64,000 nucleotides of DNA from Omnitrophica WOR_2 bacterium GWF2_43_52 (GTDB taxonomy: Bacteria; Omnitrophota; Gorgyraeia; Gygaellales; UBA12090): the NCBI GenBank assembly GCA_001805445.1, contig MHGF01000029.1, positions 4,270-68,269 on the forward strand. The letters run 5' to 3'. Under the pieces are notes generated by a model. That model was not told the DNA's origin and made no database searches. It saw nothing but the letters and a program-made list of their open reading frames with translations. A program made the translations under genes and the position numbers. The stretch's first letter is position 1. Each line of letters begins with the position of its first letter. Positions 27,362-48,610 of this stretch are shown in pieces.

Positions 27362-30300
27362 ATGGTACGTAAGATAATCTCAATAGTAGTAACGATAGGC
27401 TTACTCTTTAACCAAGGCGGGGTTATTTATGCCGCGGGTGAACTTAACCTTTCAAGCTATCTTAGCCAGTTGCATACGAGCCTGGTTAAGCCCGATATCT
27501 TCCGGCCGGTGCACCTGCGCTATTTCTCCTATGACAGCCTGAATAACAGCTACAAGATACTCTTGGATAAAGGAGACTACACCAAGTCACCAAGTCACCA
27601 GGACACCCCCGACGCTTCGGTCGGGGCAGGCAGGTCACCAGAAGAAGATCTCGTGCTCAAGGAAACTGCCCAGGAGTTGATGGACTACTTCCTGATAGGA
27701 GTAACTCTCCCCAATGATACTTTTTGGGTAAACCTAAGGCCTGATGCCCCGGATACCATCATAGACCCTGAGTTAGAGACAACCGATATAGGTAAGATAT
27801 TCCTTGAGGCCGACCTCCAGCTCAAGAAGGATACCGCGAGCTTTACTTCACCCCAAACCCCTGAAGGCAAACAGTATTGGGATAAACTCTATAAAAAGGC
27901 AGGGGAATTATTTGGCTCGGAGAATATTACCATACCTACCTTAACCCGCCCATGGATAGTGCCCAATGAAATCATCGTAAGAGAAACAGATGATTCGGCC
28001 TATGTGTACAAAGCAACGCTTAAGGTGTTGCTGGAAGAAGATTATCTAAAAAGCTCTCAGCCTTCAGCTCTCAGCCCTCAGCAATACAATTTTAAAGATT
28101 CAAGGTTAAAAGAGCTCAATGAATACTCTACCCAGCTTATCAGAGAAACTATAATTCCTAAGCTTACCAGAGAGGTAAACTCAAGCCAAAGGTATGCTAA
28201 GTTACGGCAGGTATACTATTCGCTGATACTTTCAAGATGGTTTAAGGCTCGTTTTAATAGTAAAGAGTCACAAGGTCACCAAGTCACAAGGTCACAAGGA
28301 GAAAATTACATTAATTTAATTGATAGGCGTAATCTCACTAACCTTACCTCAGAAGAACTATGGGATAAGATTACCTATTTTAACCAATACAAAGACTCCT
28401 TCAACAAAGGTGAATATAATATCAAGGAACCTACGTTTACTGCCTACGGCCAGAGTATCAGGAGTTATACCAGCGGGGGGATTGGCATTGGGCAAGCGAT
28501 ATTACCTTTTGAAGCTGATATGCAAGGTCAAGGCGCAGGGAGTCCAATACGGGGAGGAAGTTTTCAAGGGAATAATCCTGTTATTTCTGATGCGGTAATT
28601 GGCGCAGATGAAAAGAGTATAGTTTTAGATGAAAATCTTGAAGTTGTTGAACAGAAGCCTGTTGCCCTCGCCGCCTCGCCGGTGACTGTTGAAGATGCAG
28701 ATCAAAAGATTCTGGATATTCTTGAAGAAGAATTTATTTCAGATATTTTCCCAAAAGATGTGGTAGAGAAGTTTAAAGAATATAAAAGCATTAAAATTAG
28801 CAAATTTAGCAATATTGATAAGGATGTTGGAATGCCCCATGCAAGAAAAGATATAGAGAAATTATCCAGAATAAAAGGCTTTCTTAGGTATGTTATGAAT
28901 GAGTACACTAAAATAAAAGAAAAAGATGAGACCCGAGCGCGGGTACTCCTTAATAAGATAAAAATCTTGCAAGAATATCTAGAACAAGCATTAGGTGGAG
29001 AATTGTCAGTGCTTAAGGAATTTGCCGCTAATATTAATGCTGGAAAAATAACAGTTATTAGCGTTGCCATATTAAAGCAATGGGAAAAATTAATGGCTGA
29101 TATGCTTATTTCTGAAAGATACCACGCATTTGTTAAGCATTTGACTAAGAGAAATATAGAATTCTCTCGGGCAGGGAGCCTGATGAAGATATTGAACTTA
29201 GAAAGAGCAGGTAAGCGCGCCACGCAATTTAAAATTAAAGCTGGAGAGACTCTCGAGAAAAAATATAACCCCGGAGATAAATTTATTTTCAACGATGTTT
29301 TGCCGGATATTGCTTTAGGAATTAACTTTGGGGGGATACTTACTGATATAATAGTAAACGCTAATCCGCTCTTGTGGGGAAATGTGCTTATTCTTCCCGA
29401 TCCCAGTAAGTGCCTTAGCCAATATTTTAACAAAGAAGCAGCGATAGTAGCTCTTAATTTATTGGATAAGTTTAACAACCCGGGTTATAAACTAGGATTT
29501 AATGGCCCTGGGGCTTTTGCTTCTGTCCCTCAACTTCATCTGCAGGGATTTGATTATTTTGACAGCACTGGAGAAGATAAATTGCCCGTAGAAAACGCTG
29601 AAAAAACTTCTTTTTTCAGCAATAACAACGTATCCATTATGACTCTATCAGATTGGGCAGTCAATACCATTGTTTTAAACGGTAGTTCATTAGATTCATT
29701 AAACAAAGCGCTGGTATTACTTACCGATATATTGCATAAACGTAATCAACCGTTTAATATCGTTTTCACAAAAAATAGTGATAACAACTATGCTGTGTAT
29801 GTTTTTCCTAGAAAGCTGGAAGGCCCTGGGGGGGTTTTTGGCACAGGCGTTGCATTTTTAGAGTTAGCCGGAGCAGTATTGTTTACTAATCAGAATTTTG
29901 GCGGAGTGATGTTAAAAGATAAAGATAAAGAAAATCTTGAACAGCGCATAGCTTATCTTAAAAACATACGTCAGATAATATTTGGGGGTGGGACTATTGC
30001 AGAAGACCTCGTTCAGAGTGTTGGACTCGATTGGAAGGATGTTTCCAGCAAATTGATCGAAAATGGTTGGGCGAAGCCAAAAAATAAAACAGAAGTGACT
30101 TTAACAGCAAGTTTGGAACAGGTAAAAGACAGCATGTCAAGAGTTTTTGGTGATAAATGGGAAAAAATTATCTCAATCCTGGAGATTGATGACTTTCGTT
30201 ATGAAAATGAAAAAAACAAAGACGGTGATTATGTTTATTATGCTCGTCCCAAGAGAAGCGGTGAAAGCAAAGAAATTACCCCGTCGGATCTTAGCAATAA

Positions 30301-33300
30301 ATTTATGCACTATATTGATTTATCAAATATAGTGGAAATTCTTTATCAGAAAGCTGGGAGAGAGCCAGAGTTGAGAAAGTATTATGAGAAGATAACAAGC
30401 GAGTTTTATAAGGAAAAATCAGTAGATAATTACAAACAAGCTGAAGAAGATGATTTGCGAAAAGATATTGCCGCCGTGGGGATAGATGATGGCACATTTG
30501 AGAAAATTTTAGAAGTTTATAAAGATCAGTTAGTAAATTTATTCTCTGCCGCCTCGCCGCTGACAACGTTGAAGGAGAAGATAAGCGGGGTGTTCGAGAA
30601 AATACAGGAAAAGATAAATGACCAAGGACTCTTAAATTATAAAGAAGAATTAGCATCATTCTTGGAGAATTTAGAAAAAGATTTAGAAAGGCCGTTAAAT
30701 GAGATAGATAATGTTGTGAACGGGCAAGGCACTCTAAAAGATGCTTTTAGCGCGATTGAAAAAATATCAACTATTCTATTTAATAAGGAAGGTGAAATAG
30801 GCAGTATCCATACCGATATCAAGTCTATGATGGTAAGTTTGCACAGGTATGAACTGCCATCGCTTATGAGGCAAATTGAAAAGAGCCTTGGGCAGAGGGA
30901 AATCACCGCCTCGCCGCTGACGAAACAGACCGTAAAAGATGTACAATTTAACCCAGGAGAAAAGGTGTTCTTGCGCGCTGAGGTTAATATGCCAACCGAT
31001 GAGCAAAGAAATATCACTGACTATACGCGCCTTAAACAGGCGTTACCTACTATCAAATATTTGATAGGACAAGGAGTGAAGCTTGTTATTGCAGGACACC
31101 TGGGCCGGCCGCAGGAGGAGAAAAACAAGGATTTCAGTTTAGATATAGTAGCTCAGGCTCTACGATCTGAGTTGCCAGGAGTAACCATTACATTTGACAA
31201 GACAATCTTTACCCCTAAAGACGCGGAAGGTTTTATTAATTCCGAGATGAAAAACGGGGATATTTTACTTTTAGAAAACGTCCGGATGAATAAAGATGAA
31301 GAACAAAAAGAAGGGATTAATAGCCAATTCGCCAAAGATTTGTTTTTTGGCATAGATAAATATGTTTCAGATGCCTTTGGGGTTATGCATAGAGAAAACA
31401 ATGTTTCAATGGTTGGCGCTCCTAAGGGGATGCCGCGTGTTGCCGGGCTTTTAGTCCAGAAGGAAATAGAGTACCTGAATAAGATTTTGAATCCTGATGT
31501 GGCAATTGTCGGAGGAGCAAAAGTATCCGATAAAATTAAAATAATAGAGAAGCTTTTAGAAAAAGCGGATAAAATTCTTATTGGCGGGGCAATGACATTC
31601 GCTTTTGAAAAAGCCATGGGGAAAGATATTGGCAATTCTAAGCTTGGTAAGAATAAGGAAGAGGCAGAAAGAGAAACGCAATTTGCAAGGCAGCTTCTTG
31701 AAAAGGCGAAAGGAAAAATAATCCTTCCTTTGGATCATATAGTTGCAGATAGATTTAATAATGATGCGGAAAGAAAATCTGCGGAGTCAGGCAAGATCCC
31801 TGACGGCTGGATGGGCTTAGACATTGGCCCTGAGACTATTAAGCATTACAGAGCAATCATTGAGGAGGCGGAAACAGTTATCTGGAACGGCCCTATGGGG
31901 GTATTTGAATTTGATAATTTTGAGCAAGGCACGAGAGTAATAGCCGAGGCAATGGCAGTGGTAAAGAAAAAAGGCGGTATCGCGGTGGTAGGAGGGGGAG
32001 ATTCTGCTTTCGCGGTAGAGAAGTTTGGGCTAGCTGGTGAAATGTCACACGTATCTACAGGAGGAGGCGCGGCCTTAAAGTTTATCGAAGATGATGGCAA
32101 TTTGCCAGGAATTCTAGTGTTAAGTGATAAAGTAGAGGGCATCACCGCCGGCCTGCTGGGAGAAGAAATGTCGGGGGTGTATGGCGAGAATGCGCAGCCT
32201 TTACGCTATGTTTCTGTTGAAGATTTAACTGAGGGGGAACTTAGCTCTTTGAGAAGTTCCATCGTTGAGCGGATGACGTTGTCTGCAAGGGAAACGGATA
32301 ATACATATAAAAATGCGCGCTTTGCGGTTGAAATAGACCAAGGTAAGATTATTGTCTGGGGGAGGTTGGAATATAATGAAAAGACAAATGCAATAAGCCA
32401 GATTATCTTCCCGAACGCTCTAAACCTGAGCGAAGATAAGAAAAAAGATATAGAGGCTGCCTTTATTCAGGCATGGGATGAAGAATCGAAAATAAATGTT
32501 CTTTACACCGCCTCGCCGTTAGAATCTACTCCAGAGATATATGTGTTGGATAATCATCTATCGCTTGCAGAAGGAGCTAAAACCGGGAAGGCTAATATTG
32601 GGCTTGCTAAATCTAGCCTATACGATGGAGGAATTTTAAATCATTCTGAGGAGCGTGCCAGGCTTGAGTGGGCTATAGGGAATGTATTAGGAAGAATACT
32701 TTATTTTGGGTATGAGCGGTTTGACAGTGAACTTAACCGCATGGTTTTTGCTGATGAAGCAGTAGGAATTTGGAAAGCAACTTTAGCAACCGAAGGTATA
32801 TCCGAAACTGATTATAAAGAATATTTTGATCTTCAAAAAGAAAAGGACAAGATTAATCGTGATAATCTGCAAGATAGCGCACGCTCTATAGTGAACAGAA
32901 TAATTAATCTTCAGTTGAAAAAACTAATAGCTTCTACAAAGGGGGAAAAGGGGTATCCAGTCAAACAAGTTGTACTTTGCGTTGGTGAGGATTTAGGTCA
33001 GCGTTACGCAGGGCGGACGCAGGATGTTTTAAGGCAGGACATAAAGGAAATTTTAAAGGACATAATGAAAGAAGATGTGCAGAAATATGGGGGTATTGGT
33101 TTGAGGATAGCCTATGAGCCGCGCTGGGCAATTGGAACAGGCAAAACGCCTACATTGGAAGAGATTCAGAATGCGCATAGATTTATAAAAGATACTCTAA
33201 AAAGCGCAGGAGTACTAGGCATAGAGCTTGATGTTGATTATGGCGGAAGCTTAAACGCAAAGAACAAAGAGATATTATCTTTGCCTGACGTTGACGGTGG

Positions 33301-36229
33301 GCTTATTGGCAGTGCTGCCAAAACCGTTGAGGCAATCAAACCGGTTATAGAGGAAGCGATTATTCAAGGGGAGAAAAAGGGGAAAATCCTCAATATCGGG
33401 ATGAACTGGAAGGCTGAAAATAGAGGAACTGGTTTAGCCCCGCTGGGAAGCTTTATGGCATTTTTCAAGAGCCCTGGTTTTAATATTGTGGGTAAGCTAA
33501 GCATAGCCATTGGAACTACCCGGGTTAGAGATGTTAAAATGGCAGTATTGGGGGTTAAAGAGTATTATAAAAAAATTTACCAAGCAGCCGCCTCGCCGCT
33601 GGCGCTGGAGAATGAAGTGAAGGTGATACAGGAAGTAAGAGAAAAATTAAATGCATATCATAGCGGTACTATACTGCAATTCTCAAACGTATCGCTATCG
33701 AACCTTATAATATCAGTCACAAAGATGGCTAACGAAATTCAGCCAATGAATCGTATGGCTTTACCCGAAGAAGCACAAAAATGGTTTGGTATTGAAGCAG
33801 GGCTTGTACGGATTCAGGCCAAAGTCAGAGAAAATATGGAAGCATATAAAAAAGAGTTGGCAGCTTTTTATGCGGAAATCGGGCAGCATTCATATATTAA
33901 ATTGGATGAAGAGCAGAAATTATACTACACTAATAAATATGCCCGTGATATTGAAACGACGAATGACGTAGATGTAATTATTGAAGCGGCAGAACATGCC
34001 TATCGGCTGCGGGAGACTTATTTAGCGCAAGAGGCACAAAAAAAGATTGTTTCTCAGGGTAATACTTCCGCCGCCTCACCGTTGACGCTTAAGGAATTCT
34101 CTAAAAAGCTTGATCAGATGCCTAATAATAAAGTGTCGTCTCACGAAGCATTTTTAGAATTAATTAAGATGGCATCAGAGCTTTCAGCCCGGGAGGAGAT
34201 ACCGGAAAATATCCAAGAGAAAATATACGCGGCAGTCAGCCGTATCATGCCTGTGGCAGGTGAATATGTTGATAAAGAGCGTAAGGATATCCCCGGGCAG
34301 GCCCGTACTATAGAACCTATCCTGGCTATAATTGAAAGCGGATTAGAAAATTATATGGTTAAAGAGGATATGGGGTTTAAATTAGTGGACGCTATTGAGA
34401 AGGCCTTAACAGGGCATCTTGCCTATTCAAGGTATACACAACAGATAGATGATGTAATAACCGCAATAAAAAAAGATCATATTAAGATAGAAAAGATTCA
34501 AGAGTTTATTAAAGATTCGTTTAGCCAGTATGATGGCATTAAAGATGCGATTGATTTTAAGAGCGGAGAAATCGCGGAGTTGCTTGAGAAAAATAAAGAG
34601 GCTAATGCATTACTCGCGTCAGTAAGGCAGGCAAAGGAGATAACCGCTAAGCAAAGCGGCAATACAATCAAAGGCACGTATATAGACCAATCCCTCTTTG
34701 ACGCTATGGCTTGGGATATAATGATCCAAAGAGTAAGAATCGATAAATTAGAGGAAATTCTGGATGAACAGGTGAGCCGGACGAATCAATTTTTTACCAG
34801 TGATTCTATCAAGCTTTTCTGTAAGGAGTTTAAGGAAGCAGGCAAAACCGGGAAAAAACGCGTATTAGTTTCCAGGTTTAATGAAATCCGGGAAGAGGGC
34901 TCAAGAACCGATAGCGAATTGATCCAGCTAAGAGATTACTTAGCCGGGATTTTAGGAGTATATTATTTAAAAGCGGCTGAGGAGGTAAGAAGCAAGCTTA
35001 CGCCACAGGATACAGTAGAATATAAAGAAGCCCTTGATGCGGCAGGACAAGTTATTGATCTTCTTCTTAAAGGTAACGTAAAGGATCAGTTGTTTTCCGC
35101 GCAATTAGATACCGTTGTCAAGGCGTGGGATAGTATGCAAAAATCCCGTTCATCGTCGGCGCTTACCGCTGAAGAATTTATTCTTGCGGTAGATGCTCTT
35201 GGGAAAATGGCCAAAGAGAAGACGATCTCATATGAAACTGCTTTTGACAGAATGGTAGGAGCGGTTTCGGCTCTTGAAAAAGATGTAGTGGTTCCTTATG
35301 CTAAAATAGCCGATGAGTTGTATTCAATAATTCACAATGGGGTGGCGCTTGACCCTTATAGGTTAACTCTCTGGGAAGATGCCAAAGAAACGTTGTTAAG
35401 AAGGAAGAAATATGCCAGAGAGGGCATTCTTGATATGATTGAAAAAAGATTAGAGATATATAAGCGTGATTTAGCGCAGAAAGCGGGTAAAGATCTTAGC
35501 AAGTGGATAGGCGCGCTCACCGCTCACTTAGGCGCAGGTATCCGCGACTATAAAGAACACATAAACTCTATTAAAAGTACTGAGGATTTATTGTTGACTA
35601 AGGTTCAAGAGTTTTCTTCGGTCAATCGAGCGGTACAGAAGAAAGAATGGTCTGATGATAAAGAGAAGTATTATGAAGCTATGAAAAGGAAAGGCGTTTC
35701 TATTGACGAATTGAAAGGGAAATTGGATGAGATAGATAAATATAACGAATTCCTCTTAACAGTAGCTAAAGCGCGAGAAGCCATCTCTGCCGGCCAAAAA
35801 TCGTCTTCGTCGTCGCTTGTCGCTCAAGAGCCTGCTCAAGACTTTGCTATCCCTGAAGCCCAAAATACCTTCGGTGGTATTGATATGACCGACAGGGCGC
35901 TGCATATTAACTTTGAGCGCTGGGGAAGCCTTGCGGATATAGAGATGGAGCTGCCAAAACTCAGTCATGTGGAAGCGATTGATTTAGACAATGAATACCA
36001 GCAGATACAGGCCATGGCCTCATCCGGCATCAGGCCTTCAGATACGCGTATTTTGGAGTTTATCGCCGCCTGCTATTATAGGGAAGAATTTAGCCAAAGG
36101 CTTTCTGAAATCACCGCCTGCCTTAAAGAAGCGCATGCCTTGGATGAGCGTGAGGGAAAAGAAAGCAGCGAGACCCTGCGTTTAGCCACCTTGCTCCCTG
36201 ATGCGTTGTACGTAAATAGCCTGAATTAA
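27362..36229 (+). CDS. Giant secreted multidomain protein (~2,955 aa) containing a phosphoglycerate-kinase domain and a triosephosphate-isomerase-like domain
   Basis: RBS AGGAGG precedes the ATG at 27362. A signal peptide (MVRKIISIVVTIGLLFNQGGVIYA) is present. The PGK motifs are HLGRPQ, IVGGAKVSDKIKIIEKLLEKADKILIGGAMTFAF, GGGDS and STGGGA. The TIM motifs are AYEPRWAIGTGKTPT and YGGSLN...VDGGLIGSAA. The conserved N- and C-terminal domains are shared with the 813-aa paralog. Confidence 0.8.
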   Translation: MVRKIISIVVTIGLLFNQGGVIYAAGELNLSSYLSQLHTSLVKPDIFRPVHLRYFSYDSLNNSYKILLDKGDYTKSPSHQDTPDASVGAGRSPEEDLVLKETAQELMDYFLIGVTLPNDTFWVNLRPDAPDTIIDPELETTDIGKIFLEADLQLKKDTASFTSPQTPEGKQYWDKLYKKAGELFGSENITIPTLTRPWIVPNEIIVRETDDSAYVYKATLKVLLEEDYLKSSQPSALSPQQYNFKDSRLKELNEYSTQLIRETIIPKLTREVNSSQRYAKLRQVYYSLILSRWFKARFNSKESQGHQVTRSQGENYINLIDRRNLTNLTSEELWDKITYFNQYKDSFNKGEYNIKEPTFTAYGQSIRSYTSGGIGIGQAILPFEADMQGQGAGSPIRGGSFQGNNPVISDAVIGADEKSIVLDENLEVVEQKPVALAASPVTVEDADQKILDILEEEFISDIFPKDVVEKFKEYKSIKISKFSNIDKDVGMPHARKDIEKLSRIKGFLRYVMNEYTKIKEKDETRARVLLNKIKILQEYLEQALGGELSVLKEFAANINAGKITVISVAILKQWEKLMADMLISERYHAFVKHLTKRNIEFSRAGSLMKILNLERAGKRATQFKIKAGETLEKKYNPGDKFIFNDVLPDIALGINFGGILTDIIVNANPLLWGNVLILPDPSKCLSQYFNKEAAIVALNLLDKFNNPGYKLGFNGPGAFASVPQLHLQGFDYFDSTGEDKLPVENAEKTSFFSNNNVSIMTLSDWAVNTIVLNGSSLDSLNKALVLLTDILHKRNQPFNIVFTKNSDNNYAVYVFPRKLEGPGGVFGTGVAFLELAGAVLFTNQNFGGVMLKDKDKENLEQRIAYLKNIRQIIFGGGTIAEDLVQSVGLDWKDVSSKLIENGWAKPKNKTEVTLTASLEQVKDSMSRVFGDKWEKIISILEIDDFRYENEKNKDGDYVYYARPKRSGESKEITPSDLSNKFMHYIDLSNIVEILYQKAGREPELRKYYEKITSEFYKEKSVDNYKQAEEDDLRKDIAAVGIDDGTFEKILEVYKDQLVNLFSAASPLTTLKEKISGVFEKIQEKINDQGLLNYKEELASFLENLEKDLERPLNEIDNVVNGQGTLKDAFSAIEKISTILFNKEGEIGSIHTDIKSMMVSLHRYELPSLMRQIEKSLGQREITASPLTKQTVKDVQFNPGEKVFLRAEVNMPTDEQRNITDYTRLKQALPTIKYLIGQGVKLVIAGHLGRPQEEKNKDFSLDIVAQALRSELPGVTITFDKTIFTPKDAEGFINSEMKNGDILLLENVRMNKDEEQKEGINSQFAKDLFFGIDKYVSDAFGVMHRENNVSMVGAPKGMPRVAGLLVQKEIEYLNKILNPDVAIVGGAKVSDKIKIIEKLLEKADKILIGGAMTFAFEKAMGKDIGNSKLGKNKEEAERETQFARQLLEKAKGKIILPLDHIVADRFNNDAERKSAESGKIPDGWMGLDIGPETIKHYRAIIEEAETVIWNGPMGVFEFDNFEQGTRVIAEAMAVVKKKGGIAVVGGGDSAFAVEKFGLAGEMSHVSTGGGAALKFIEDDGNLPGILVLSDKVEGITAGLLGEEMSGVYGENAQPLRYVSVEDLTEGELSSLRSSIVERMTLSARETDNTYKNARFAVEIDQGKIIVWGRLEYNEKTNAISQIIFPNALNLSEDKKKDIEAAFIQAWDEESKINVLYTASPLESTPEIYVLDNHLSLAEGAKTGKANIGLAKSSLYDGGILNHSEERARLEWAIGNVLGRILYFGYERFDSELNRMVFADEAVGIWKATLATEGISETDYKEYFDLQKEKDKINRDNLQDSARSIVNRIINLQLKKLIASTKGEKGYPVKQVVLCVGEDLGQRYAGRTQDVLRQDIKEILKDIMKEDVQKYGGIGLRIAYEPRWAIGTGKTPTLEEIQNAHRFIKDTLKSAGVLGIELDVDYGGSLNAKNKEILSLPDVDGGLIGSAAKTVEAIKPVIEEAIIQGEKKGKILNIGMNWKAENRGTGLAPLGSFMAFFKSPGFNIVGKLSIAIGTTRVRDVKMAVLGVKEYYKKIYQAAASPLALENEVKVIQEVREKLNAYHSGTILQFSNVSLSNLIISVTKMANEIQPMNRMALPEEAQKWFGIEAGLVRIQAKVRENMEAYKKELAAFYAEIGQHSYIKLDEEQKLYYTNKYARDIETTNDVDVIIEAAEHAYRLRETYLAQEAQKKIVSQGNTSAASPLTLKEFSKKLDQMPNNKVSSHEAFLELIKMASELSAREEIPENIQEKIYAAVSRIMPVAGEYVDKERKDIPGQARTIEPILAIIESGLENYMVKEDMGFKLVDAIEKALTGHLAYSRYTQQIDDVITAIKKDHIKIEKIQEFIKDSFSQYDGIKDAIDFKSGEIAELLEKNKEANALLASVRQAKEITAKQSGNTIKGTYIDQSLFDAMAWDIMIQRVRIDKLEEILDEQVSRTNQFFTSDSIKLFCKEFKEAGKTGKKRVLVSRFNEIREEGSRTDSELIQLRDYLAGILGVYYLKAAEEVRSKLTPQDTVEYKEALDAAGQVIDLLLKGNVKDQLFSAQLDTVVKAWDSMQKSRSSSALTAEEFILAVDALGKMAKEKTISYETAFDRMVGAVSALEKDVVVPYAKIADELYSIIHNGVALDPYRLTLWEDAKETLLRRKKYAREGILDMIEKRLEIYKRDLAQKAGKDLSKWIGALTAHLGAGIRDYKEHINSIKSTEDLLLTKVQEFSSVNRAVQKKEWSDDKEKYYEAMKRKGVSIDELKGKLDEIDKYNEFLLTVAKAREAISAGQKSSSSSLVAQEPAQDFAIPEAQNTFGGIDMTDRALHINFERWGSLADIEMELPKLSHVEAIDLDNEYQQIQAMASSGIRPSDTRILEFIAACYYREEFSQRLSEITACLKEAHALDEREGKESSETLRLATLLPDALYVNSLN

Positions 36230-36239
36230 CCGATAGCTA

Positions 36240-36385
36240 CCAATGCCCGCCAATGCCAGGCATAGTCAAGTAAGAATTGTTAATGCCTGGTATCTTAGTG
36301 TTATCAGTGCCAGACATATACAACGCGTAAACAACTTGCCTATGCCTGGCACTGTCTATTTATAGATGCCAGGCATTGCTCTTTT
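36240..36385. repeat. Dispersed copies of the palindromic motif (A)TGCCAGGCAT downstream of the giant gene
   Basis: aatgccaggcat, aatgcctggtat, agtgccagacat, atgcctggcact and atgccaggcatt, spaced about 25-30 nt apart. Confidence 0.5.
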
Positions 36386-36403
36386 TTTAGCAGAAAAAAT
36401 ATT

Positions 36404-36436
36404 TGACAAAAGAAGAAAATATGTTACATTATAGGC
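36404..36436 (+). promoter_or_regulatory. Candidate sigma-70 promoter for the ATP synthase operon
   Basis: ttgaca-N16-tacatt, about 150 nt upstream of the first atp gene. Confidence 0.3.
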
Positions 36437-36580
36437 ACGTTATGAGGCTATAAAGACAAGGGTGTCTAAAAAGGCTATGTGTGCCTTAAAAGCTAAACCT
36501 AAAGTTTAGTACCCCGCACCCGTAATAGTAGTAATCCCAAAAGGTTACACTTCTGCTTTAATACTTAACAGGCGAGGCAT

Positions 36581-36826
36581 TTGCTGAATCCCGCGGATAA
36601 CAAAGACAAAAACGAGAATCTTAAATACTTAAAGGTTGTCCTTGAGGCTACAAGCATCCCCTTTGTATTGCTTGGCGGGCCGATGGTGGGATTTTTTATC
36701 GGGGCTTTTCTTGACCAAAGGTTTAATTCCGGGAAGTTATTTACTTTTCTCTTTGTAGTGTTGGGTTTTGTCGCGGCAGTCAAAGAAACTATTTATATTA
36801 TTAAGAGGGTGCAAAAAGGCATATAA
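36581..36826 (+). CDS. AtpZ/AtpI-like small membrane protein of the ATP synthase operon
   Basis: 81 aa with 2 TM segments. First gene of the atp operon. Confidence 0.5.
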   Translation: MLNPADNKDKNENLKYLKVVLEATSIPFVLLGGPMVGFFIGAFLDQRFNSGKLFTFLFVVLGFVAAVKETIYIIKRVQKGI

Positions 36827-36828
36827 GC

Positions 36829-37224
36829 GTGGAGATCTCTTTTATCTACAAGTCGCTCAAAGTAAGCTTTTGGTTTACTCTACTGCTTTCATTATTTTCT
36901 CTTTATTATTTCGGCCAAAAATTCACATTAGGCTTAATCAGCGGCTCTTTCTGGAGTATAGCTAATTTTTTGCTTTTTGTTGGGCTTTCAAAAGCTTTTA
37001 CGGATATTGCTCATAACAAGCTGAAGATAGCCTTGTATGCTTTTATTAAGTTTGGAGCGCTTTATATTACAGGTTATTTGATTATATCATCGTCTAAGGT
37101 TTCATTGCCCGGTATCAGTGTGGGGTTTGGCATCATTTTTACGGTGATTTTTCTGCAGGCAATAGGAATGGTGTTTGCCTCGTTGGAGACTACAGCGCAA
37201 CCGGAAAAATTAAAATGTCTCTGA
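36829..37224 (+). CDS. atpI: ATP synthase protein I-like membrane protein
   Basis: 131 aa with 4 TM segments and a GTG start. Lies between the atpZ-like gene and atpB. Confidence 0.5.
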   Translation: MEISFIYKSLKVSFWFTLLLSLFSLYYFGQKFTLGLISGSFWSIANFLLFVGLSKAFTDIAHNKLKIALYAFIKFGALYITGYLIISSSKVSLPGISVGFGIIFTVIFLQAIGMVFASLETTAQPEKLKCL

Positions 37225-37251
37225 CGGGGTTTACTCAAAAAGAGGTGCCTT

Positions 37252-38073
37252 GTGTCAGGCTCTGAAAGCTCCTCACAGGAATTAGCAAATTTTATCGGTA
37301 TCACGGTTAAAGGTTTAGGTGATTCAGGCCTTGGGATATTCCTTCATCGCTGGGAAAATGTGATTTTTTCCTTGATAGCGGTGGTGTTTCTATCTCTTAT
37401 GGCTTACTTTGCCCAGCGTAACCGCTCTTTTGTCCCTGAGCGAAGGCTCCAGAATATGGTTGAGGTACTGGTTGAGAGTTTAAGTAATTTTGTCTCCGGG
37501 GTCCTGGGTGAAAAAGAAGGCAGGCATTATCTTCCGTATATAGGCACGCTTTTTCTCTATATCTTAATTATGAATTTTATGGGTATGGTGCCGGGAATGA
37601 AATCGCCCACGTCCAGCCTGAACACGACTGTGGCACTTGCGCTTTGCACCTTTATCTACGTGCAATATACCGGGATACGGAGGCTGGGAATGATCGGCTA
37701 TCTTGACCATATGGCAGGAAGCCCGCGCATGCCTGAGGAAAAAGGCGTTTTTAAAATATTCTTAATTTTACTGTTTATTCCTATCCATATCCTTTTATTC
37801 ATTATCCATATTATTGGCGAGTTTGTAAAACCAGTAAGCTTATCCCTGCGTCTTTTTGGGAATATTACCGGTGAAGACGCGCTTTTGTATGTGTTTGTTA
37901 TGTTGGGGCTTTCAATGTTTTCTGCCTGGAAAAGTCCCGTAGGGTTCCCTCTGCAGATACCGATAATGTTTTTGTCGTTAATCGGGGGGGCGGTGCAGGC
38001 AATGGTCTTTAGCCTGCTTTCGGCAGTGTATATCTCGATGATGCTTCCGCATCATGAAGAAGTGAAACATTAA
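37252..38073 (+). CDS. atpB: F0F1 ATP synthase subunit a
   Basis: 273 aa. Conserved Arg within LSLRLFGNI. Confidence 0.85.
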   Translation: MSGSESSSQELANFIGITVKGLGDSGLGIFLHRWENVIFSLIAVVFLSLMAYFAQRNRSFVPERRLQNMVEVLVESLSNFVSGVLGEKEGRHYLPYIGTLFLYILIMNFMGMVPGMKSPTSSLNTTVALALCTFIYVQYTGIRRLGMIGYLDHMAGSPRMPEEKGVFKIFLILLFIPIHILLFIIHIIGEFVKPVSLSLRLFGNITGEDALLYVFVMLGLSMFSAWKSPVGFPLQIPIMFLSLIGGAVQAMVFSLLSAVYISMMLPHHEEVKH

Positions 38074-38440: not shown

Positions 38441-38469
38441 TTGCAGTAACTTTTTAGTAAGGCACGAAC

Positions 38470-38955
38470 ATGATGAATCTTGATTTTCAACAGGTACTTA
38501 CCCAAGCCGTAGGTTTTCTCATCCTTTTGGGGCTGCTCAAGCTGTTTTTCTGGAAGCCGGTCATATCTTTACTTGACCAGAGGAAAGAAAAGATAGCCGC
38601 GGAGTTTAAACACATTGAGGACGCCAAGGCAGAGCTTGCTACATTAAAGGCTGAATATGAAACAAGGCTTGCCTCAATTGAGGAAATCGCCCGGCAGAAG
38701 ATAAAAGAGGCTGTTGAAGAAGGAAAAAGAATAACCGATGAGTTGAAGTCCAAGGCTGAGGAGCAGGCACGCCAGATAATAGAAAGTGGCCGGGAGAATA
38801 TCAGGCAGGAGCTCTTAAAGACAAAGCAGGAATTAAAAAGCCATATCGTGGATTTGGCGTTAAGGGCTACTGAGAGTATTATCCTTGAGAAACTCACGGC
38901 AGATCATGACAAGAAGCTGGTTGAAGATTTTCTTGACAAGATAGACAGGGCCTGA
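38470..38955 (+). CDS. atpF: F0F1 ATP synthase subunit b
   Basis: N-terminal TM segment followed by a long charged coiled coil. Confidence 0.8.
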   Translation: MMNLDFQQVLTQAVGFLILLGLLKLFFWKPVISLLDQRKEKIAAEFKHIEDAKAELATLKAEYETRLASIEEIARQKIKEAVEEGKRITDELKSKAEEQARQIIESGRENIRQELLKTKQELKSHIVDLALRATESIILEKLTADHDKKLVEDFLDKIDRA

Positions 38956-39016
38956 TGAACCCCGCGCCTTCTAAAATGTTTAAAAGATTAAAAATGAATA
39001 AGAACGAAGGTGCGGG

Positions 39017-39565
39017 GTGAAGGACGATGTGCTAGCAAAGAGATACGCCGATGCCTTTTTAAGCTATGCCTGCCAGGGCCTAAGTGAAGAAAAGGCGCTT
39101 GACGATTTTAAAAAGGCAAGGGAAATTCTCTTAGAGAATAAAGAGCTTATTCTTGATTTCTTGGAAGCTCCGGCAGTAACCGTGCTTGAGAAAAACGCCT
39201 TTATTGATAAGTTCTTTGGCGAGGGCTTCTCAGAAGAGTTCCGGCAGTTTTTAAAATTTCTTTTAAAGAAAAACAGGATCGACAAACTCTGGGATGTCGC
39301 GGAATATGTCAGGGTCGCCTATTCTCACGGCAAAAGCGTAAGGGCGCTGCTTAAGACGAGTTTTCCTTTAGATTTGGAATTGGTCCAGTTGATTATTGAC
39401 AGCCTGGAGAGAAAGTTCCAGAGAAAAATCAAACTGTATATAGAGCTTGACGGCGAGCTGTTAGGGGGAGTTAAGGTGGTCATAGGCAACAAGGTAATTG
39501 ATGGGTCCGTGAAAAGGCGTATTGAAAGGCTTAAAGAACGATTTGAAACACTAAGGACTGCGTAA
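39017..39565 (+). CDS. atpH: F0F1 ATP synthase subunit delta
   Basis: 182 aa OSCP/delta-like protein, positioned between atpF and atpA. Confidence 0.75.
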
Positions 39566-39566
39566 A

Positions 39567-41096
39567 ATGGCGATAAAACCGGAAGAAGTAACATCAATAC
39601 TCAAGAAAGAATTAGAAAAGTACCGTTCAAAGATTGAGGTGGAGTCGGTTGGTACCGTAATCCAGGTGGGAGATACTATTGCCCGCGTCTATGGCCTGGA
39701 TGATGTGATGATGGGTGAACTGGTGCAATTCCCCGGCGGGATTATGGGAATGGTGTTAAACTTGGAAGAAAATAGCGTGGGTGTGGTTATCTTCGGGACT
39801 GACAATGCTGATATGACTATCCGCGAGGGGGATATTGTCAAGCGCACAGGAAAAATTGTCCAGGTCCCTGTGGGTAATGCCCTGGTGGGACGGGTAGTAA
39901 ACGCGCTGGGAAGCCCGATTGACGGTAAAGGCGCCGTGGTTACGGATAAATATCGGCCTCTTGAAGCAGGCGCCCCTAATGTCATTGACCGTCAGCCGGT
40001 AAAAGAGCCGCTTGAAACCGGCATCAAGGCAATTGATTCAATGATTCCTATCGGTAGAGGGCAAAGAGAGTTGATTATCGGCGACCGCCAGACAGGAAAA
40101 ACCGCGATTGTTATTGATACTATCATCAATCAAAAAGGAAAAGGCGTTTACTGTATCTATGTGGCGATAGGCCAGAAGATGTCAAGTGTGGTGGCTATAC
40201 ATGAACTTCTGAAGACCTATGGGGCAATGGAATATACTACTATCGTCAGCGCCTCAAGCCGGGCATCAGCATCGTTACAGTATTTAGCGCCGTACGCTGG
40301 ATGCGCGATAGGCGAAGAGATGATGTATTCGGGAAAGCATGTGCTAGTGATTTATGATGACCTTTCTAAGCATGCCCAGAGCTATCGGCAGCTGTCGTTA
40401 CTTTTAAGGCGCCCACCGGGAAGAGAGGCATATCCCGGTGACGTGTTTTATCTGCATTCCCGCCTTTTAGAGAGGGCGGCAAAGCTCAAGGATTCCTTAG
40501 GCGGAGGCTCGCTTACCGCGTTACCTATAATTGAGACACAGGCCGGAGATATCACCAGCTATATCCCGACTAATGTTATTTCAATTACTGACGGCCAGAT
40601 TTACCTTGAGAATGACCTATTTTATTCAGGGGTGCGCCCGGCTATAAACGTGGGGCTATCCGTTTCAAGAGTCGGAGGCAAGGCCCAGATAAAGGCAATG
40701 CGCCAGGTGGCCGCGAAGCTGCGCCTTGACCTGGCCCAATACAGGGAATTGGCGGCGTTTGCCCAATTCGGAAGCGAATTGGATAAGACTACCCAGATGC
40801 AGCTGACCCGCGGGGAGAAGATGGTTGAAATACTCAAACAGGCGCAGTTTGTGCCGCTTCCGGTGGCAAGGCAGATTTTGATTATTTATTGCGGCACGCG
40901 CGGGTTTCTTGACGATTTGCCGATACACTTACTCAAGGATTTTGAGGCCAAAATCTTCGCGCATATCGAGAAGGAATATCCTGACCTTGAGTATGAGATT
41001 GAGAATAAAAAAGAATTAAGCCCTGATTTGATGAAAAAGCTTGATGAGATAATTGCTTCGTTCAAGCAGTATTTCAAAGGCACAGGCGCAAGCTAA
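39567..41096 (+). CDS. atpA: F0F1 ATP synthase subunit alpha
   Basis: 509 aa. Walker A GDRQTGKT. Confidence 0.95.
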
Positions 41097-41110
41097 CCGC
41101 ATTCAGTCGT

Positions 41111-43382
<2,272 letters not shown>

Positions 43383-43386
43383 GATA

Positions 43387-43644
43387 ATGGAAAAAGACTT
43401 TTTACTTACCATACTTTGCCCGGATAAAAAATTATACGAAGGGAGAATCAAGTCGTTAATAGTGCCTTCTGAATTAGGGTATCTTGGTGTCCTCGCTAAC
43501 CACGCCCCGCTTATCACTAACCTTGTTCCCGGAAAAATCACCATCCGCAATCCATCCGATGAGATAACCGTACTTCATGCTCACGGTAAAGGCTTCTTAG
43601 AAGTTTTTAAGAATAACGTCACCCTCCTCGTAAGCGCCGCCTGA
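43387..43644 (+). CDS. atpC: F0F1 ATP synthase subunit epsilon
   Basis: The ATG lies 4 nt after the atpD stop and the product has an epsilon beta-sandwich N-terminus. The tracked ORF starting at 43351 is an in-frame upstream extension overlapping atpD. Confidence 0.8.
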   Translation: MEKDFLLTILCPDKKLYEGRIKSLIVPSELGYLGVLANHAPLITNLVPGKITIRNPSDEITVLHAHGKGFLEVFKNNVTLLVSAA

Positions 43645-43715
43645 TGCGCTTAACCACGTTCATTTAATTATAATAGTCTAAAGAATTGACAGCGTCTCTG
43701 GACACTAAAAAACAA

Positions 43716-43748
43716 AAAAGCCCTTTATCCAAGGGCCCTTTTGGAGGC
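43716..43748 (+). terminator. Rho-independent terminator after the ATP synthase operon
   Basis: aaaaagccctttatccaagggccctttt. A second hairpin plus T-run (tagcgcttgtcgcta ttttttt) follows at about 43758-43785. Confidence 0.6.
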
Positions 43749-44206
43749 TATAAACCTCTAGCGCTTGTCGCTATTTTTTTCCTCCTTTATTTATGAGTTC
43801 TTAGGGATTGTTGCTTTAGGGAGGCAGTTCCCCAAGACTTTTAGAAAACTTGTAACTAAAGTATGCCATAAGAAAACAAAAAAACAAGGGGTAAAAAGCC
43901 ATTTTTAGAAAGCGTTTTCTCGGTGTTTGAAATAATGAAAACTTGGATAAACGAATTCAGGCGGATGGTTACGGATGTCGCGGATAAAAAAATCTGTTTG
44001 CATTCGTGTATTTAATCAATGCGCAAAAATCTATTCTGATTCATTGGTAAATAAAATATTACAAAAAGTGCTTACAACAAAATCGGGAAAGCTTCCTTGA
44101 TTTTGGTTGACAAGCTTACCTTTTATGCTATCCTAAAATAAATAGATTTATAAAATAACGCTGCGGTAATGATAAGAATTAATTTCATAACAGGAAGGCG
44201 CGCTGA

Positions 44207-45844
<1,638 letters not shown>

Positions 45845-46168
45845 TCGCGAATTTTCTATCTTCTTTCTCCGTTATTGTTATCCTGCCTAGTTAAGATCTC
45901 CCTCCTCGCTTGCCTGCCGGCAGGTAAGCCGAGGCAAAATCTCTAATCCAGAGGAATATATTTTTCTCTCCATTAAAAGAAAGGTTTTCGATAATTTTTG
46001 CCTCAGTCGGCCGGATAATTAAGTTATTGCCTTATTAAAGAAAACGCTTTCCCGAAACCCCTGTTTTAGCCTTGTAATCCTAAGAATCGAGGGTATACTT
46101 TAATTACCAATTGAAAACTCAAAAAAGTTTATGTTTTCCTCTAAAACAATTTTTAGGAGATATGGCCA

Positions 46169-48610
46169 ATGCTAAAAAAGACGATAGCCGTTTTTTTATC
46201 TTTTAACTTCCTCTTCACCCAATGCCTTTTTGCCCAAGGCGTAGCCCAACTTAATATAGGAAGCTACCTGCGTACTGCAACGAGCAGTATGGCAGTGGAT
46301 AAATTCCGCCCTGTGCATATGCGTTATTTCTCCTATGATATAGCAACGGATAAGTTTGAAATGCTTTTGGATAAGGGAGACAATAAGGATATAAAGGAAG
46401 ATGAGCTTAAGGATAAGTCTAAAGCATTGATGGAGTATTTTCAGATTGGATTATCTTTGCCTAACGATAAGTTTTGGGTGAACTTGAGGCCGGATGCGGA
46501 AGACCAGATAATTGATCCGGAACTGGAAAAGACTGATGTGGGCAAGATTATGCTTGAGGCTGACCTGCAGTTAAAGAAAGACACCGCAAGTTTTACTTCG
46601 CCTCAAACTCCGGAAGGAAAAGAATATTGGGATAAGTTGTATAAAAAAGCAGGTGAGCTCTTCGGAACAGAAAATATCACTATCCCCACTATAACCCGTC
46701 CCTGGATAGTCCCGGGGGAGATAATTATAAGAGAAGGGGAAGATTCTGGTTCGACTTCGCTCACCACAAGCGCCTATATCTACAAGGCGAATATGAAGGT
46801 GATGTTAGAGCAGGATCACCTTCAGGGGACAGGGGGAAGAGTTCAGGGGATAGATTACAGTTTTAAGGACCCACGAATGAAGGAATTGAATGAATATTCC
46901 TCACAGTTAATCCGGGAACTGATTATCCCTAAGCTGACCAAAGAGGTAAATATCTCCAAAAGATACGCCGCTCTTCGGCAGGTATTCTTTTCCTTGGTAA
47001 TGGCTCGCTGGTTTAAGGATAATTTCACCGGAAAACCCGGCACCTACGCCAGCCTGATTGACAGCCATAACCTTAATGATATTAGCTCTCAAGAACCCTG
47101 GTCAAAGACTGTTTATTTCAACCAATACAAGGAGTCTTTTGCCAAGGGCGAATATAACCTCAAAGAGCAGGTAGCCACTCCCTATGGACAGACGATTCGA
47201 AGTTATGTGAGCGGGGGAGTTGTGATGAATTTCGCTAAGAACATATACGAAGGAGGTAAGAAATTATTCTTGCCTGTTTTGTTTGCAGGAGTCTCAAATT
47301 TATCTCTTTTTGCTGGTAATGGTGATACGGGAGCAATGAGAAAGGTGGGGGCTGAAGAATATTCTGTAAGGCAAGAGAAGGCATTAACAGTGGCTAATTA
47401 TCTTAGAGCAAAGAAAGAAACGCAGGATAATATTAGAGCATTTACGCGCGATCTCGAAAAAAAATTTCCTCTTAGCCCCCAGATTATTAGGAAAATCCAA
47501 GAATATATTATTGGTTTTTCTTCAAAAGTTCTCAGTTTAAGTCCTCAAGACTCGAGAGAGAAAAGAATAGGAGATATCCTAAAAGATATAAGAGAAGAAT
47601 TCGGACAAGATTATCCAATTACAGGTATGAATGAATCTCTGGAAGGAATACTCAATCCGCTAGATACACTTGCAAATGAAAATAACTCTATAGAGCTTAA
47701 TGAGGCAATAAGATTAGCGATAAGACAAGCTACGTTAGATTTAAGGTCATCAATTGAACGAAGTCTTAAGGAGAGAACAGGCTCTTCGCCTCTTGCGGAG
47801 AAAGAAAAGATATCGAGGCAAATTTGGCTGGCTATGGCTGATTTGAAAAAGCTGCTTAATGATTTGGATGGAAAGATTACGCCTGAGGATATGAAGCCAG
47901 CCCAGGTACCTTTTGGTCCGGAGGTGCCAACGGTAAGATCTCCTGAGAGGGCTGTAAATATATTGCTTAATCTTATAGCGGATTATTTAAAAGATATGAA
48001 TAGTATTCCATCAGGCCTGGATACTTTCATAAGGATAATGGAAAACTATCGTGATAAGGACTTAAAAGAGGTTTTAGAAAAATATAAGTTTGTGGATAAG
48101 CTTAATCAAATTATTGAGAAGCTTAGCCCTAAGCAAAAAGATGCGGTTTCTCCGGAGGTGAGCATAGAAGCAACTCGGGAGAAGCAGGCAGCAAGCCCTC
48201 TTGCAGGTAGTGAGCCCTCTAGAGATACCTTAGGCGGTATTGACTTTCGTGCCATGAATTACCTCACGCAGCCGATGGGTAGTTTTCAGGGGCTTAATTT
48301 TACCCTGCCTCTGCTTAGCAGCAGCGCTCTTGAGGCAATAGACTTGGATGAAGAATTAGACCAGATAACGAATATGGCCATGCAGGGGATAATTCCTTCC
48401 GGCCAAAGGATAAAGGAGTATTTGGCTGCTTGCTTCCAGAAAGGCAAGATTGAGGATAAACAGGAATACTTGCTCTTATGCTTAGTTGAGGTCTGCCGCC
48501 TGCTTGAGGATGAGAATATGGAGAGCGCACCTGAGCTTCGGGAAGCCATAGTCATTGCCGATTCAGGGAGGTTTGTCTTGCAAGCAAAAGAGAATATTTC
48601 GCTGAATTAG
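46169..48610 (+). CDS. Secreted 813-aa paralog of the giant protein (shared N- and C-terminal domains, unrelated middle)
   Basis: Signal peptide MLKKTIAVFLSFNFLFTQCLFAQG. The N-terminal ~380 aa are about 60% identical to the giant protein (FRPVH(L/M)RYFSYD, WVNLRPDA, LEADLQLKKDTASFTSPQTPEGK, YWDKLYKKAGELFG). The C-terminal domain begins GGID and ends SLN in both proteins. Confidence 0.7.
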   Translation: MLKKTIAVFLSFNFLFTQCLFAQGVAQLNIGSYLRTATSSMAVDKFRPVHMRYFSYDIATDKFEMLLDKGDNKDIKEDELKDKSKALMEYFQIGLSLPNDKFWVNLRPDAEDQIIDPELEKTDVGKIMLEADLQLKKDTASFTSPQTPEGKEYWDKLYKKAGELFGTENITIPTITRPWIVPGEIIIREGEDSGSTSLTTSAYIYKANMKVMLEQDHLQGTGGRVQGIDYSFKDPRMKELNEYSSQLIRELIIPKLTKEVNISKRYAALRQVFFSLVMARWFKDNFTGKPGTYASLIDSHNLNDISSQEPWSKTVYFNQYKESFAKGEYNLKEQVATPYGQTIRSYVSGGVVMNFAKNIYEGGKKLFLPVLFAGVSNLSLFAGNGDTGAMRKVGAEEYSVRQEKALTVANYLRAKKETQDNIRAFTRDLEKKFPLSPQIIRKIQEYIIGFSSKVLSLSPQDSREKRIGDILKDIREEFGQDYPITGMNESLEGILNPLDTLANENNSIELNEAIRLAIRQATLDLRSSIERSLKERTGSSPLAEKEKISRQIWLAMADLKKLLNDLDGKITPEDMKPAQVPFGPEVPTVRSPERAVNILLNLIADYLKDMNSIPSGLDTFIRIMENYRDKDLKEVLEKYKFVDKLNQIIEKLSPKQKDAVSPEVSIEATREKQAASPLAGSEPSRDTLGGIDFRAMNYLTQPMGSFQGLNFTLPLLSSSALEAIDLDEELDQITNMAMQGIIPSGQRIKEYLAACFQKGKIEDKQEYLLLCLVEVCRLLEDENMESAPELREAIVIADSGRFVLQAKENISLN

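Follow-up and report, generated by a model that had tools for sequence, protein, structure and literature searches.

A very large Omnitrophota protein family with conserved terminal domains, predicted signal peptides and cassette-like middles that include glycolytic enzymes

Two genes in a 64,000-nucleotide stretch of Omnitrophica WOR_2 bacterium GWF2_43_52 (assembly GCA_001805445.1, contig MHGF01000029.1, positions 4,270 to 68,269 of the forward strand), hereafter the window, encode proteins of 2,955 and 813 amino acids (aa) that share their two ends and have unrelated middles. By BLASTP, the N-terminal ~370 residues of the two proteins match with E = 3e-133 (51% identity over 442 columns, gaps included), and the C-terminal ~150 residues match with E = 2e-19 (35% over 168 columns). 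A global alignment of the pair gives 208 identical residues of 318 (65%) in the core of the N-terminal domain (N-domain) and 50 of 118 (42%) in the core of the C-terminal domain (C-domain). The best local alignment between the middles scores 57, which is not significant. The motifs FRPVH[LM]RYFSYD, WVNLRPDA... and GGID ... SLN occur in both proteins. An initial annotation of this DNA had proposed a two-member family of secreted proteins with conserved termini and unrelated, size-variable middles. Both open reading frames (ORFs) proved real, each appearing in the ORF list with a Shine-Dalgarno site ahead of its start codon (Table 1), and the shared termini and unrelated middles stand as described. 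The 8.9-kb ORF of the larger protein, called the giant here, runs without interruption, and five independent contigs encode the identical 2,955-aa protein, which excludes an artefact of assembly. A2Y00_10745 of the same organism and the 813-aa protein are identical throughout (100%).

Table 1. Positions in the window of the two family genes and their parts. P and L numbers denote sampled family proteins and loci.
Feature	Coordinates	Strand	Evidence
Giant family member (2,955 aa + stop): signal peptide (predicted), N-domain, six cassettes, C-domain	27362..36229	+	ORF, translation, ATG at 27362 with Shine-Dalgarno AGGAGG 8 nucleotides (nt) upstream, identical protein on 5 contigs
Giant, signal-peptide-like N-terminus, aa 1-25, MVRKIISIVVTIGLLFNQGGVIYAA	27362..27436	+	family-wide n/h/c-region statistics
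Giant, conserved N-domain, aa 26-374	27437..28483	+	jackhmmer borders, 65% identity to paralog's, ~50 invariant residues
A-S-P-V linker word CCGCCTCGCCG	28671..28681; also 30549-30559, 30906-30916, 32508-32518, 33588-33598, 34071-34081 (last: one mismatch)	+	
Cassette M2, aa 439-1064, GDP-D-glucose phosphorylase-like (GDPGP1_N/C, HIT-type 'HLHLQ')	28676..30553	+	precomputed Pfam PF26217/PF26216; homologous to cargo of P0017, P0012, L013
Cassette M3, aa 1065-1183, helical, linker motif each side	30554..30910	+	60.5% identity, full length, to P0077 702-820, ending exactly at P0077's motif
Cassette M4, aa 1184-1717	30911..32512	+	contains PGK domain
Complete PGK domain, aa 1192-1576, in M4	30935..32089	+	Pfam E = 1.4e-122; 1vpe E = 8.8e-97; catalytic motifs intact; NCBIfam PGK/TIM 504 bits
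Cassette M5, aa 1718-2077, TIM-like	32513..33592	+	Pfam TIM aa 1869-1997 (32966-33352); homologous to P0088 403-607
Cassette M6, aa 2078-2238, no known domain	33593..34075	+	40% identity to P0070 373-527, starting exactly at P0070's motif, residue 372
Cassette(s) M7, aa 2239-2835, helical, no known domain, no match in sampled family	34076..35866	+	
Giant, conserved C-domain, aa 2836-2955, GGID...SLN	35867..36226	+	BLASTP, jackhmmer borders, alignment
813-aa family member, P0001 = A2Y00_10745	46169..48610	+	ORF, translation, ATG at 46169 with Shine-Dalgarno AGGAG 9 nt upstream
813-aa protein, signal-peptide-like N-terminus, aa 1-24, MLKKTIAVFLSFNFLFTQCLFAQG	46169..46240	+	n/h/c statistics; AlphaFold2 helix, low-confidence linker before domain
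813-aa protein, conserved N-domain, aa 25-351, three beta-hairpins + long helices	46241..47221	+	
813-aa protein, transmembrane-like hydrophobic segment, aa 366-385, LFLPVLFAGVSNLSLFAGNG, KK before	47264..47323	+	17-aa Kyte-Doolittle hydropathy 1.9
813-aa protein, middle, aa 386-686, helical, no known domain	47324..48226	+	linker motifs aa 539-542 (47783-47794), 675-678 (48191-48202), pLDDT < 50
813-aa protein, conserved C-domain, aa 687-813, short strands + helical bundle	48227..48607	+	AlphaFold2 pLDDT 92-98, jackhmmer borders, co-occurring Cys pair

These two are the only family copies in the window, but to call the family two-membered is an understatement: the genome itself has at least three members and the family as a whole some 6,400 clusters. 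The third paralog in the genome, P0046 (A2Y00_09565), has 613 aa with an N-domain and a transmembrane (TM)-like segment, and no C-domain is detectable in it. A word-indexed search returned 564 relatives, and every match with a named source was from Omnitrophota. Run against 1.84 billion cluster representatives, a full hidden Markov model scan matched 6,446 clusters at E <= 1e-30, a number that rises to 8,293 at E <= 1e-3; the best 150 representatives are 537 to 6,439 aa long. Species-representative genomes hold relatives at 466 loci. The best 80 of these 466 are all in Omnitrophota-type metagenome-assembled genomes (MAGs), with many paralogs per genome: E14_concoct.bin.43 has at least 8 loci with at least 11 family genes, and GWA2_41_15 has at least 5 loci. 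Family genes stand in tandem at seven loci. Both terminal domains are present in 114 of 121 proteins delimited by jackhmmer; the N-domain always starts at about residue 25 to 30, the C-domain always forms the last ~115 residues, and the middles range from 75 to 2,461 aa. C-domains without an N-domain appear only as fragments at locus edges or from frameshifts, and some family genes in other MAGs are frame-broken. The family is thus very large, modular and of Omnitrophota, and was not found described: the papers and preprints searched gave no description of the N-/C-domain family, the nearest being a preprint on proteins named Archaeovorins. The initial annotation had allowed for common homologs belonging to a family already characterised; homologs are indeed common, in the thousands, and the published description did not turn up.

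That neither terminal domain belongs to a described family was borne out by searches of Pfam-A, NCBIfam and PDB. The 813-aa protein has no Pfam match at E <= 0.01, and the same scan of the giant gives only the PGK and TIM matches discussed below. The terminal domains match nothing in NCBIfam, and thus no known sorting, anchoring or secretion domain among Pfam-A and NCBIfam profiles, such as an autotransporter beta-domain, T9SS CTD, PEP-CTERM or LPXTG; cohesin, dockerin and SLH domains are likewise absent by Pfam. Against PDB sequences, single-sequence searches of the terminal domains found no match, and a profile search gave only coiled-coil noise in its middle columns. AlphaFold2 with the family alignment models residues ~45-350 of the N-domain at a predicted local distance difference test score (pLDDT) above 90 and the C-domain at 92-98, with disordered linkers. 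The confident N-domain model has no structural relative among PDB chains. About 320 aa long and virtually cysteine-free, the N-domain is ~60% identical among paralogs whose cargo is unrelated, and it keeps ~50 invariant residues in 114 sequences. The C-domain has two Cys positions on adjacent helices, 67/68 and 83 (aa 753/754 and 769 of the 813-aa protein). Among 232 distinct C-domains, 151 have both, 33 have neither and 48 have one (odds ratio 10, p = 4e-11, kinship among the sequences being ignored). The pair may form a disulfide, with which an oxidising, extracytoplasmic location would be compatible.

The middle of the giant has recognisable parts: a complete phosphoglycerate kinase (PGK) domain, the C-terminal half of a triose-phosphate isomerase (TIM) and a GDPGP1-like module. 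The PGK domain scores 409.8 bits against a cut-off of 27 and covers positions 2-377 of the 379 in profile PF00162. It keeps the motifs R..N.P, ENVR, HR, GGAKVSDK, NGPMGVFE, GGGD and TGGGA, and is 47.7% identical to a canonical PGK and 48% identical to PGKs of Firmicutes. It is a full-length PGK domain with its catalytic motifs in place and appears catalytically competent. The TIM match (PF00121, E = 6.7e-30) covers profile positions 118-243 of 245. Cassette M5 has the Glu165 loop as YEPRWAIGTG, in a well-conserved C-terminal half, and the sequence NHSEER (compare GHSERR); the N-terminal half, with the beta1 'NWK' region, is not recognisable in its place. A circularly permuted TIM, in which the sequence 'NIGMNWKAEN' after the match would be beta1, was considered and is not supported, as phmmer of the 79-aa segment against PDB found no TIM. 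The giant's best NCBIfam match is the bifunctional PGK/TIM model NF010569, at 504.3 bits and below the cut-off of 883. The Thermotoga-type enzymes of that model likewise have PGK and then TIM in one polypeptide, but there the two are contiguous, the TIM is complete and the protein is cytoplasmic. The giant instead has ~290 residues with one linker motif between PGK and TIM, only half a TIM, a predicted signal peptide and additional cassettes.

In 67,082 middle-region residues of the family, the linker motif [AS]-S-P-[LVIM] appears 182 times, where shuffles would give 8.65 +/- 3.1 (21-fold enrichment); N-domains do not contain it once. Its copies gather 30-50 residues past the N-domain and 10-20 residues ahead of the C-domain, lie within the low-confidence, disordered linkers of the AlphaFold2 model, and tend to be preceded by small and followed by acidic residues. 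Six linker motifs delimit the modules of the giant. Cassettes M2, M3, M5 and M6 match cargo of smaller paralogs, each match beginning or finishing exactly at the motif in both partners. The motif is therefore the border of cassettes that are common to the paralogs and rearranged among them. In the giant a single GC-rich word, CCGCCTCGCCG, spells each of the six A-S-P-[LV] motifs, one of them with a mismatch, in a genome of 42% GC; six of its seven matches in the window are in the gene, where 0.58 would be expected. DNA similarity around the word is limited to ~15 nt, which rules out the giant's cassettes as recent duplications of one another. In 83 family genes from other genomes (kinship ignored), the motif Ser is encoded by TCG in 46% of cases (background 10%) and the Pro by CCG in 50% (background 29%); the 813-aa paralog uses other codons at its motifs. 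The codon bias could stem from common descent of the linkers, from recombination, or from selection at the DNA or RNA level.

Enzyme cargo across the family includes PGK, PGM/PMM, FBPase, transaldolase, iPGM, GAPDH, TIM, GPI, PPDK, glutamate dehydrogenase (GDH), enolase and aldolase. Guanylate kinase, NUDIX, HD, methyltransferase, HEAT, TPR, WD40, DnaJ and FHA modules are among the other cargo. Most of the cargo consists of sugar-phosphate and glycolytic enzymes that appear catalytically competent, and successive steps of the pathway are often fused in one chain. At locus L021, one gene (11057-17488) encodes aldolase and TIM, and its tandem neighbour (19078-21114) encodes enolase and PPDK; a gene of L051 (9992-15106) runs from PGK to enolase; protein P0287 (3,600 aa) combines GAPDH, PGK, an aldolase-like module, TIM and enolase; and P0248 (2,494 aa) carries PGK with a complete PPDK. 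The TIM of L021 is ~50% identical to ordinary TIMs, other embedded PGKs are 27-38% identical to canonical ones with most catalytic motifs kept, and there are divergent copies such as a GAPDH at 89 bits and a GDH at 46 bits. The GDH cargo of P0081 has its two domains in reversed order, ELFV_dehydrog (aa 492-660) before ELFV_dehydrog_N (aa 829-910), which suggests a permuted or rearranged enzyme cassette. Genes of L045 (11003-21169) and L074 (11021-21028) have middles of more than 3,300 aa that run off the fetched loci and match nothing in Pfam; to judge from these two, a large share of the cargo repertoire is without a known domain.

Homologs of PGK, TIM, GAPDH and PPDK in 1.27 Mb of DNA flanking family genes occur inside family ORFs only. 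The same DNA holds one standalone glycolytic enzyme, where about three would be expected, a difference that is not significant. This enzyme is an enolase of 456 aa without N- or C-domain, encoded directly upstream of a family gene in MAG WY5.bin157 (L062, 1391-2760, plus strand), so in that genome a canonical copy of a glycolytic enzyme coexists with the family. Homology searches with the PGK and the L021 TIM found only ordinary enzymes of 250-400 aa from other phyla, and since even self-matches were absent, these searches are uninformative on copy number.

Signal peptides were called from heuristic statistics and a position logo on 126 N-termini. Median n-regions have three K/R and no D/E, the hydrophobic core has 12 residues, and 97% of the N-termini pass the hydropathy threshold. 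The core leads into Q-Q-x-G-F-A, with Q after the putative cut; the whole logo reads K/R K I I S L V L S F x L L F Q Q x G F A and then, past the cut, Q. The basic n-region, an h-region within 7-15 residues, the polar c-region and small residues at -3 and -1 all agree with substrates of Sec and signal peptidase I, and by this heuristic the N-terminus is predicted to be a canonical Sec-type signal peptide. Tat export was considered and is unlikely family-wide, with R at the second basic position in only ~20% and mostly KK or RK there.

In the giant, the only hydrophobic 19-mers above threshold are the N-terminus and a buried segment of the GDPGP1-like module. None of the 13 enzyme-bearing members examined has a second TM-like segment, which predicts their cassettes to be on the same membrane side as the N-domain. 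A hydrophobic segment of ~20 residues, 15-40 residues after the N-domain, is present in 23 of 178 members (13%). Carriers include the 813-aa protein, P0002, P0015, P0031, P0034, P0046, P0060, P0062 and P0064, and the segment is stronger in the orthologs P0002, P0015, P0031 and P0060 than in the 813-aa protein. If it spans the membrane, the family would comprise two topological sub-types whose C-domains may face opposite sides. The view that both window proteins are secreted keeps the support of their signal-peptide-like N-termini and is complicated, for the 813-aa protein, by the TM-like segment.

Recurrent neighbours of family genes at the sampled loci represent housekeeping synteny, with RsmI, GlmS, GyrA/B, HisG, PFOR and transketolase; clustering of 821 neighbouring ORFs revealed this synteny only and no dedicated partner gene (secretion system, protease, chaperone or immunity gene). 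The window is similar. Its diderm housekeeping genes include GlnA type III, glutamate synthase and an ammonium transporter, an F-type ATP synthase operon sits between the giant gene and the 813-aa gene, and CTP synthase, LpxB, an MsbA-like ABC transporter, ribosomal protein S2, tRNAs and PtsI are also encoded. Directly upstream of the giant gene is a pair consisting of a PhdYeFM-type antitoxin (95 aa) and a ParE-type toxin (102 aa) at 26257-26842, followed by an intrinsic-terminator-like hairpin at ~27206-27245. At the sampled family loci, the conserved clusters of neighbours do not include this pair. An ATG at 27206 falls within the hairpin and is thereby ruled out as the start of the giant. 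Within 100 nt upstream of the actual start are two copies (27266-27291 and 27309-27334) of a ~22-nt element, CCGCAACCT[A/C]CGCGGTTGACTTT, each partly palindromic and with a -35-like hexamer TTGAC(T); the two could be a promoter or operator. Farther away, a 647-aa ORF without Pfam match (10391-12334, plus strand) is followed by an overlapping gene for an HD-domain protein (12318-13646).

The reading we tentatively prefer, and consider quite possible, is that of a Sec-exported, modular enzyme-carrier family, in which the N-domain (perhaps with the C-domain) anchors the paralogs and the cassettes form an extracytoplasmic array acting on sugar phosphates and nucleotide sugars. The polypeptides would be exported via Sec, and every paralog would be held or assembled at one shared envelope site through its invariant N-domain, perhaps with help from the C-domain. 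Cassettes co-localised in this way would make up a multi-enzyme array outside the cytoplasm, and the sugar phosphates or nucleotide sugars that it processes might come, for example, from prey or hosts of ultra-small epibionts. New architectures would arise by swapping or fusion of cassettes at the linker, with recombination as the presumed mechanism behind the borders that paralogs share. One route to fusion would start from tandem genes and recombine the linker after the N-domain of one with the linker before the C-domain of its neighbour. In a stronger form of the proposal, part of glycolysis, including substrate-level phosphorylation, would take place outside the cytoplasm of an ultra-small bacterium, in pathway-ordered enzyme chains (up to GAPDH-PGK-aldolase-TIM-enolase, or PGK-PPDK) assembled by the N-domain in the periplasm, at the surface or at an interface with prey; this we think less likely than not, though well within the possible.

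Several points weigh against the exported enzyme carrier. Export is a heuristic prediction from sequence. PGK, GAPDH and PPDK depend on ATP/ADP, NAD or AMP/PPi, cofactors that one would not look for in the periplasm or beyond the cell. In conservation the embedded enzymes are roughly on a par with housekeeping orthologs of other phyla and would fit the organism's own cytoplasmic pathway, and the flanking DNA gave a single standalone enzyme rather than about three, a shortfall that is not significant. The TM-like segment in 13% of members, the 813-aa protein among them, would if real make the C-domain cytoplasmic there yet exported elsewhere, which is hard to reconcile. The co-occurrence statistic for the C-domain Cys pair is uncorrected for phylogeny. 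The N-domain, proposed as the anchor, is not known to have a partner or ligand.

Much of this would be accommodated by the main rival, a glycolytic metabolon tethered to the membrane, with the hydrophobic N-terminus (with or without the second segment) as its anchor and with cargo and C-domain in the cytoplasm, where the family would be the scaffolded and fused glycolysis of the cell itself. All cargo folds are of cytoplasmic type and depend on cofactors; consecutive steps are fused (FBA-TIM, ENO-PPDK, PGK...ENO, GAPDH-PGK-FBA-TIM-ENO); catalytic motifs are kept, with ~50% identity to ordinary enzymes; and the restriction of PGK, TIM, GAPDH and PPDK homologs to family ORFs in the 1.27 Mb, the conserved housekeeping synteny and the TM-like segment of 13% of members all agree with such a complex. 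West-Roberts et al. 2023 also doubted an extracellular prediction for enzymes of this kind (bioRxiv 10.1101/2023.11.21.568195). We nevertheless think a cytoplasmic metabolon less probable. Its N-terminus is laid out in n, h and c regions with an A-x-A-like site, as in a Sec signal that is cleaved; its K/R residues stand on the N-terminal side, so that the positive-inside rule places the rest of the chain outside; and a core of 12 residues is too short to anchor stably in the membrane. In enzyme-bearing members there is no second hydrophobic segment that would return the cargo inside, a standalone enolase coexists with the family, and many cassettes are highly divergent, unlike sole housekeeping enzymes. 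The family might also, under either localisation, be a polyprotein precursor, with [AS]SP[LVIM] as sites of cleavage or modification and the N- and C-domains as carrier or pro-region. A motif at every cassette border, 21-fold enriched, absent from N-domains, placed in disordered linkers and set in a conserved context of small residues before and acidic residues after, is what this would predict, and West-Roberts et al. 2023 proposed post-translational cleavage for Omnitrophota giants. However, Pfam and NCBIfam show no protease domain in either window protein, no conserved protease is found among the 821 neighbouring ORFs, and the motif may be nothing more than a flexible joint or the scar of a recombination event; its codon bias points at least in part to a history at the DNA level. 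Processing of this sort is a minority possibility in our estimation.

A role of the family as surface proteins, adhesins or effectors had been suggested by the initial annotation on the strength of conserved ends around a shuffled middle. That layout does fit effectors secreted into or onto prey or host cells, whose N-domain would serve translocation or recognition and whose cassettes would rewire or drain prey metabolism. The signal peptide and polymorphic middle fit too, Omnitrophota include predatory and epibiotic ultramicrobacteria, and the non-enzyme cassettes include interaction modules (HEAT, TPR, WD40, FHA and DnaJ). But the middles are not repeats of adhesin type, being mostly central-carbon enzymes that are normally cytoplasmic; the variable part is central where effectors would have it C-terminal; the cargo is mainly ordinary metabolic enzymes; and neither toxin-type domains nor immunity genes nor a linked apparatus for secretion or injection turned up with the family genes, whose neighbours are housekeeping genes. 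Effectors are accordingly a distinctly improbable explanation. An artefact of chimeric assembly, fused pseudogenes or chance similarity deserves mention since the data are metagenome-assembled and some family genes are frame-broken in other MAGs. It is effectively refuted by the uninterrupted 8.9-kb ORF with its strong Shine-Dalgarno site, by the identical protein on five contigs, by thousands of homologs of the same kind and by terminal-domain E-values of 3e-133 and 2e-19.

Among known systems, the closest to the exported enzyme carrier are the Archaeovorins, whose type sequence is from Ca. Velamenicoccus archaeovorus (West-Roberts et al. 2023). In a short passage on Omnitrophota proteins longer than 30,000 aa, that preprint reports TIM, GPI, FBPase, PGM/PMM, aldolase and PPDK domains in parts predicted to be extracellular, a localisation its authors doubted. 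Archaeovorins and the present family have in common their phylum, a signal peptide or membrane association, HEAT/TPR, NUDIX and methyltransferase modules along with glycolytic-type domains predicted to be extracytoplasmic, divergent domain copies, and suggested post-translational cleavage. They differ in size (genes above 90 kb, against 2,955 and 813 aa for the window proteins and 0.5-6.4 kaa for the family), and Archaeovorins have many TM helices, SecA_DEAD/SecA preprotein-binding domains, glycosyltransferases and peptidases, whereas members of the family usually have no TM helix apart from the signal peptide and Pfam finds no SecA domain here. The N- and C-domain that define the family are absent from the preprint's description. 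Cellulosomes offer a functional analogy only: they too are modular, exported and linker-joined enzyme systems in which many paralogs share one conserved module, but they dock glycoside hydrolases through cohesin and dockerin, whereas here intracellular-type glycolytic enzymes are joined covalently and cohesin, dockerin and SLH domains are missing. Polymorphic toxin and effector systems have a variable C-terminal toxin domain beside an immunity gene and are linked to a secretion system; in the family the C-terminus is conserved and the neighbours are housekeeping genes.

Pathogens display GAPDH, enolase, PGK and TIM on their surface as moonlighting adhesins, and these are ordinary cytoplasmic proteins without signal peptides. 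The same set of enzymes would be outside the cytoplasm in both cases, with the difference that export in the family is predicted to be hard-wired by a dedicated carrier. In stramenopiles, fusions of TPI and GAPDH are reported to carry mitochondrial targeting signals (PMC3527533, PMC6198282). These fusions and the glycosomes of kinetoplastids resemble the family in that glycolytic enzymes, some of them fused, leave the cytosol by an N-terminal signal; they differ in serving organelles with import machinery and metabolite carriers, where the family belongs to a bacterium and has a predicted Sec-type signal. Modular exported multi-domain proteins of Omnitrophota and fusions of glycolytic enzymes are already known. 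Extracytoplasmic glycolysis would be categorically new, and we give it a minority but substantial chance. Surveys of Omnitrophota genomes list glycolysis as present and pass over fusions of this kind.

Whatever its location, the family includes a strongly constrained N-domain of ~320 aa without detectable structural relative, supplies natural cassettes, with a defined linker motif, from which polypeptides of several enzymes can be built, and provides small, tractable relatives of the giant Archaeovorin proteins. If the cargo is cytoplasmic, the family would represent a natural glycolytic metabolon, covalently fused and tethered to the membrane, which is also unusual. If the signal peptides are functional, thousands of genes in one phylum would encode hard-wired export of ATP- and NAD-dependent glycolytic enzymes, a bacterial counterpart of the glycosome or an 'external stomach' for the sugar phosphates of prey. 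Existing surveys may then have scored embedded domains as ordinary cytoplasmic glycolysis; such export, if true, would challenge the view that bacterial glycolysis is strictly cytoplasmic and would change the metabolic reconstruction of Omnitrophota.

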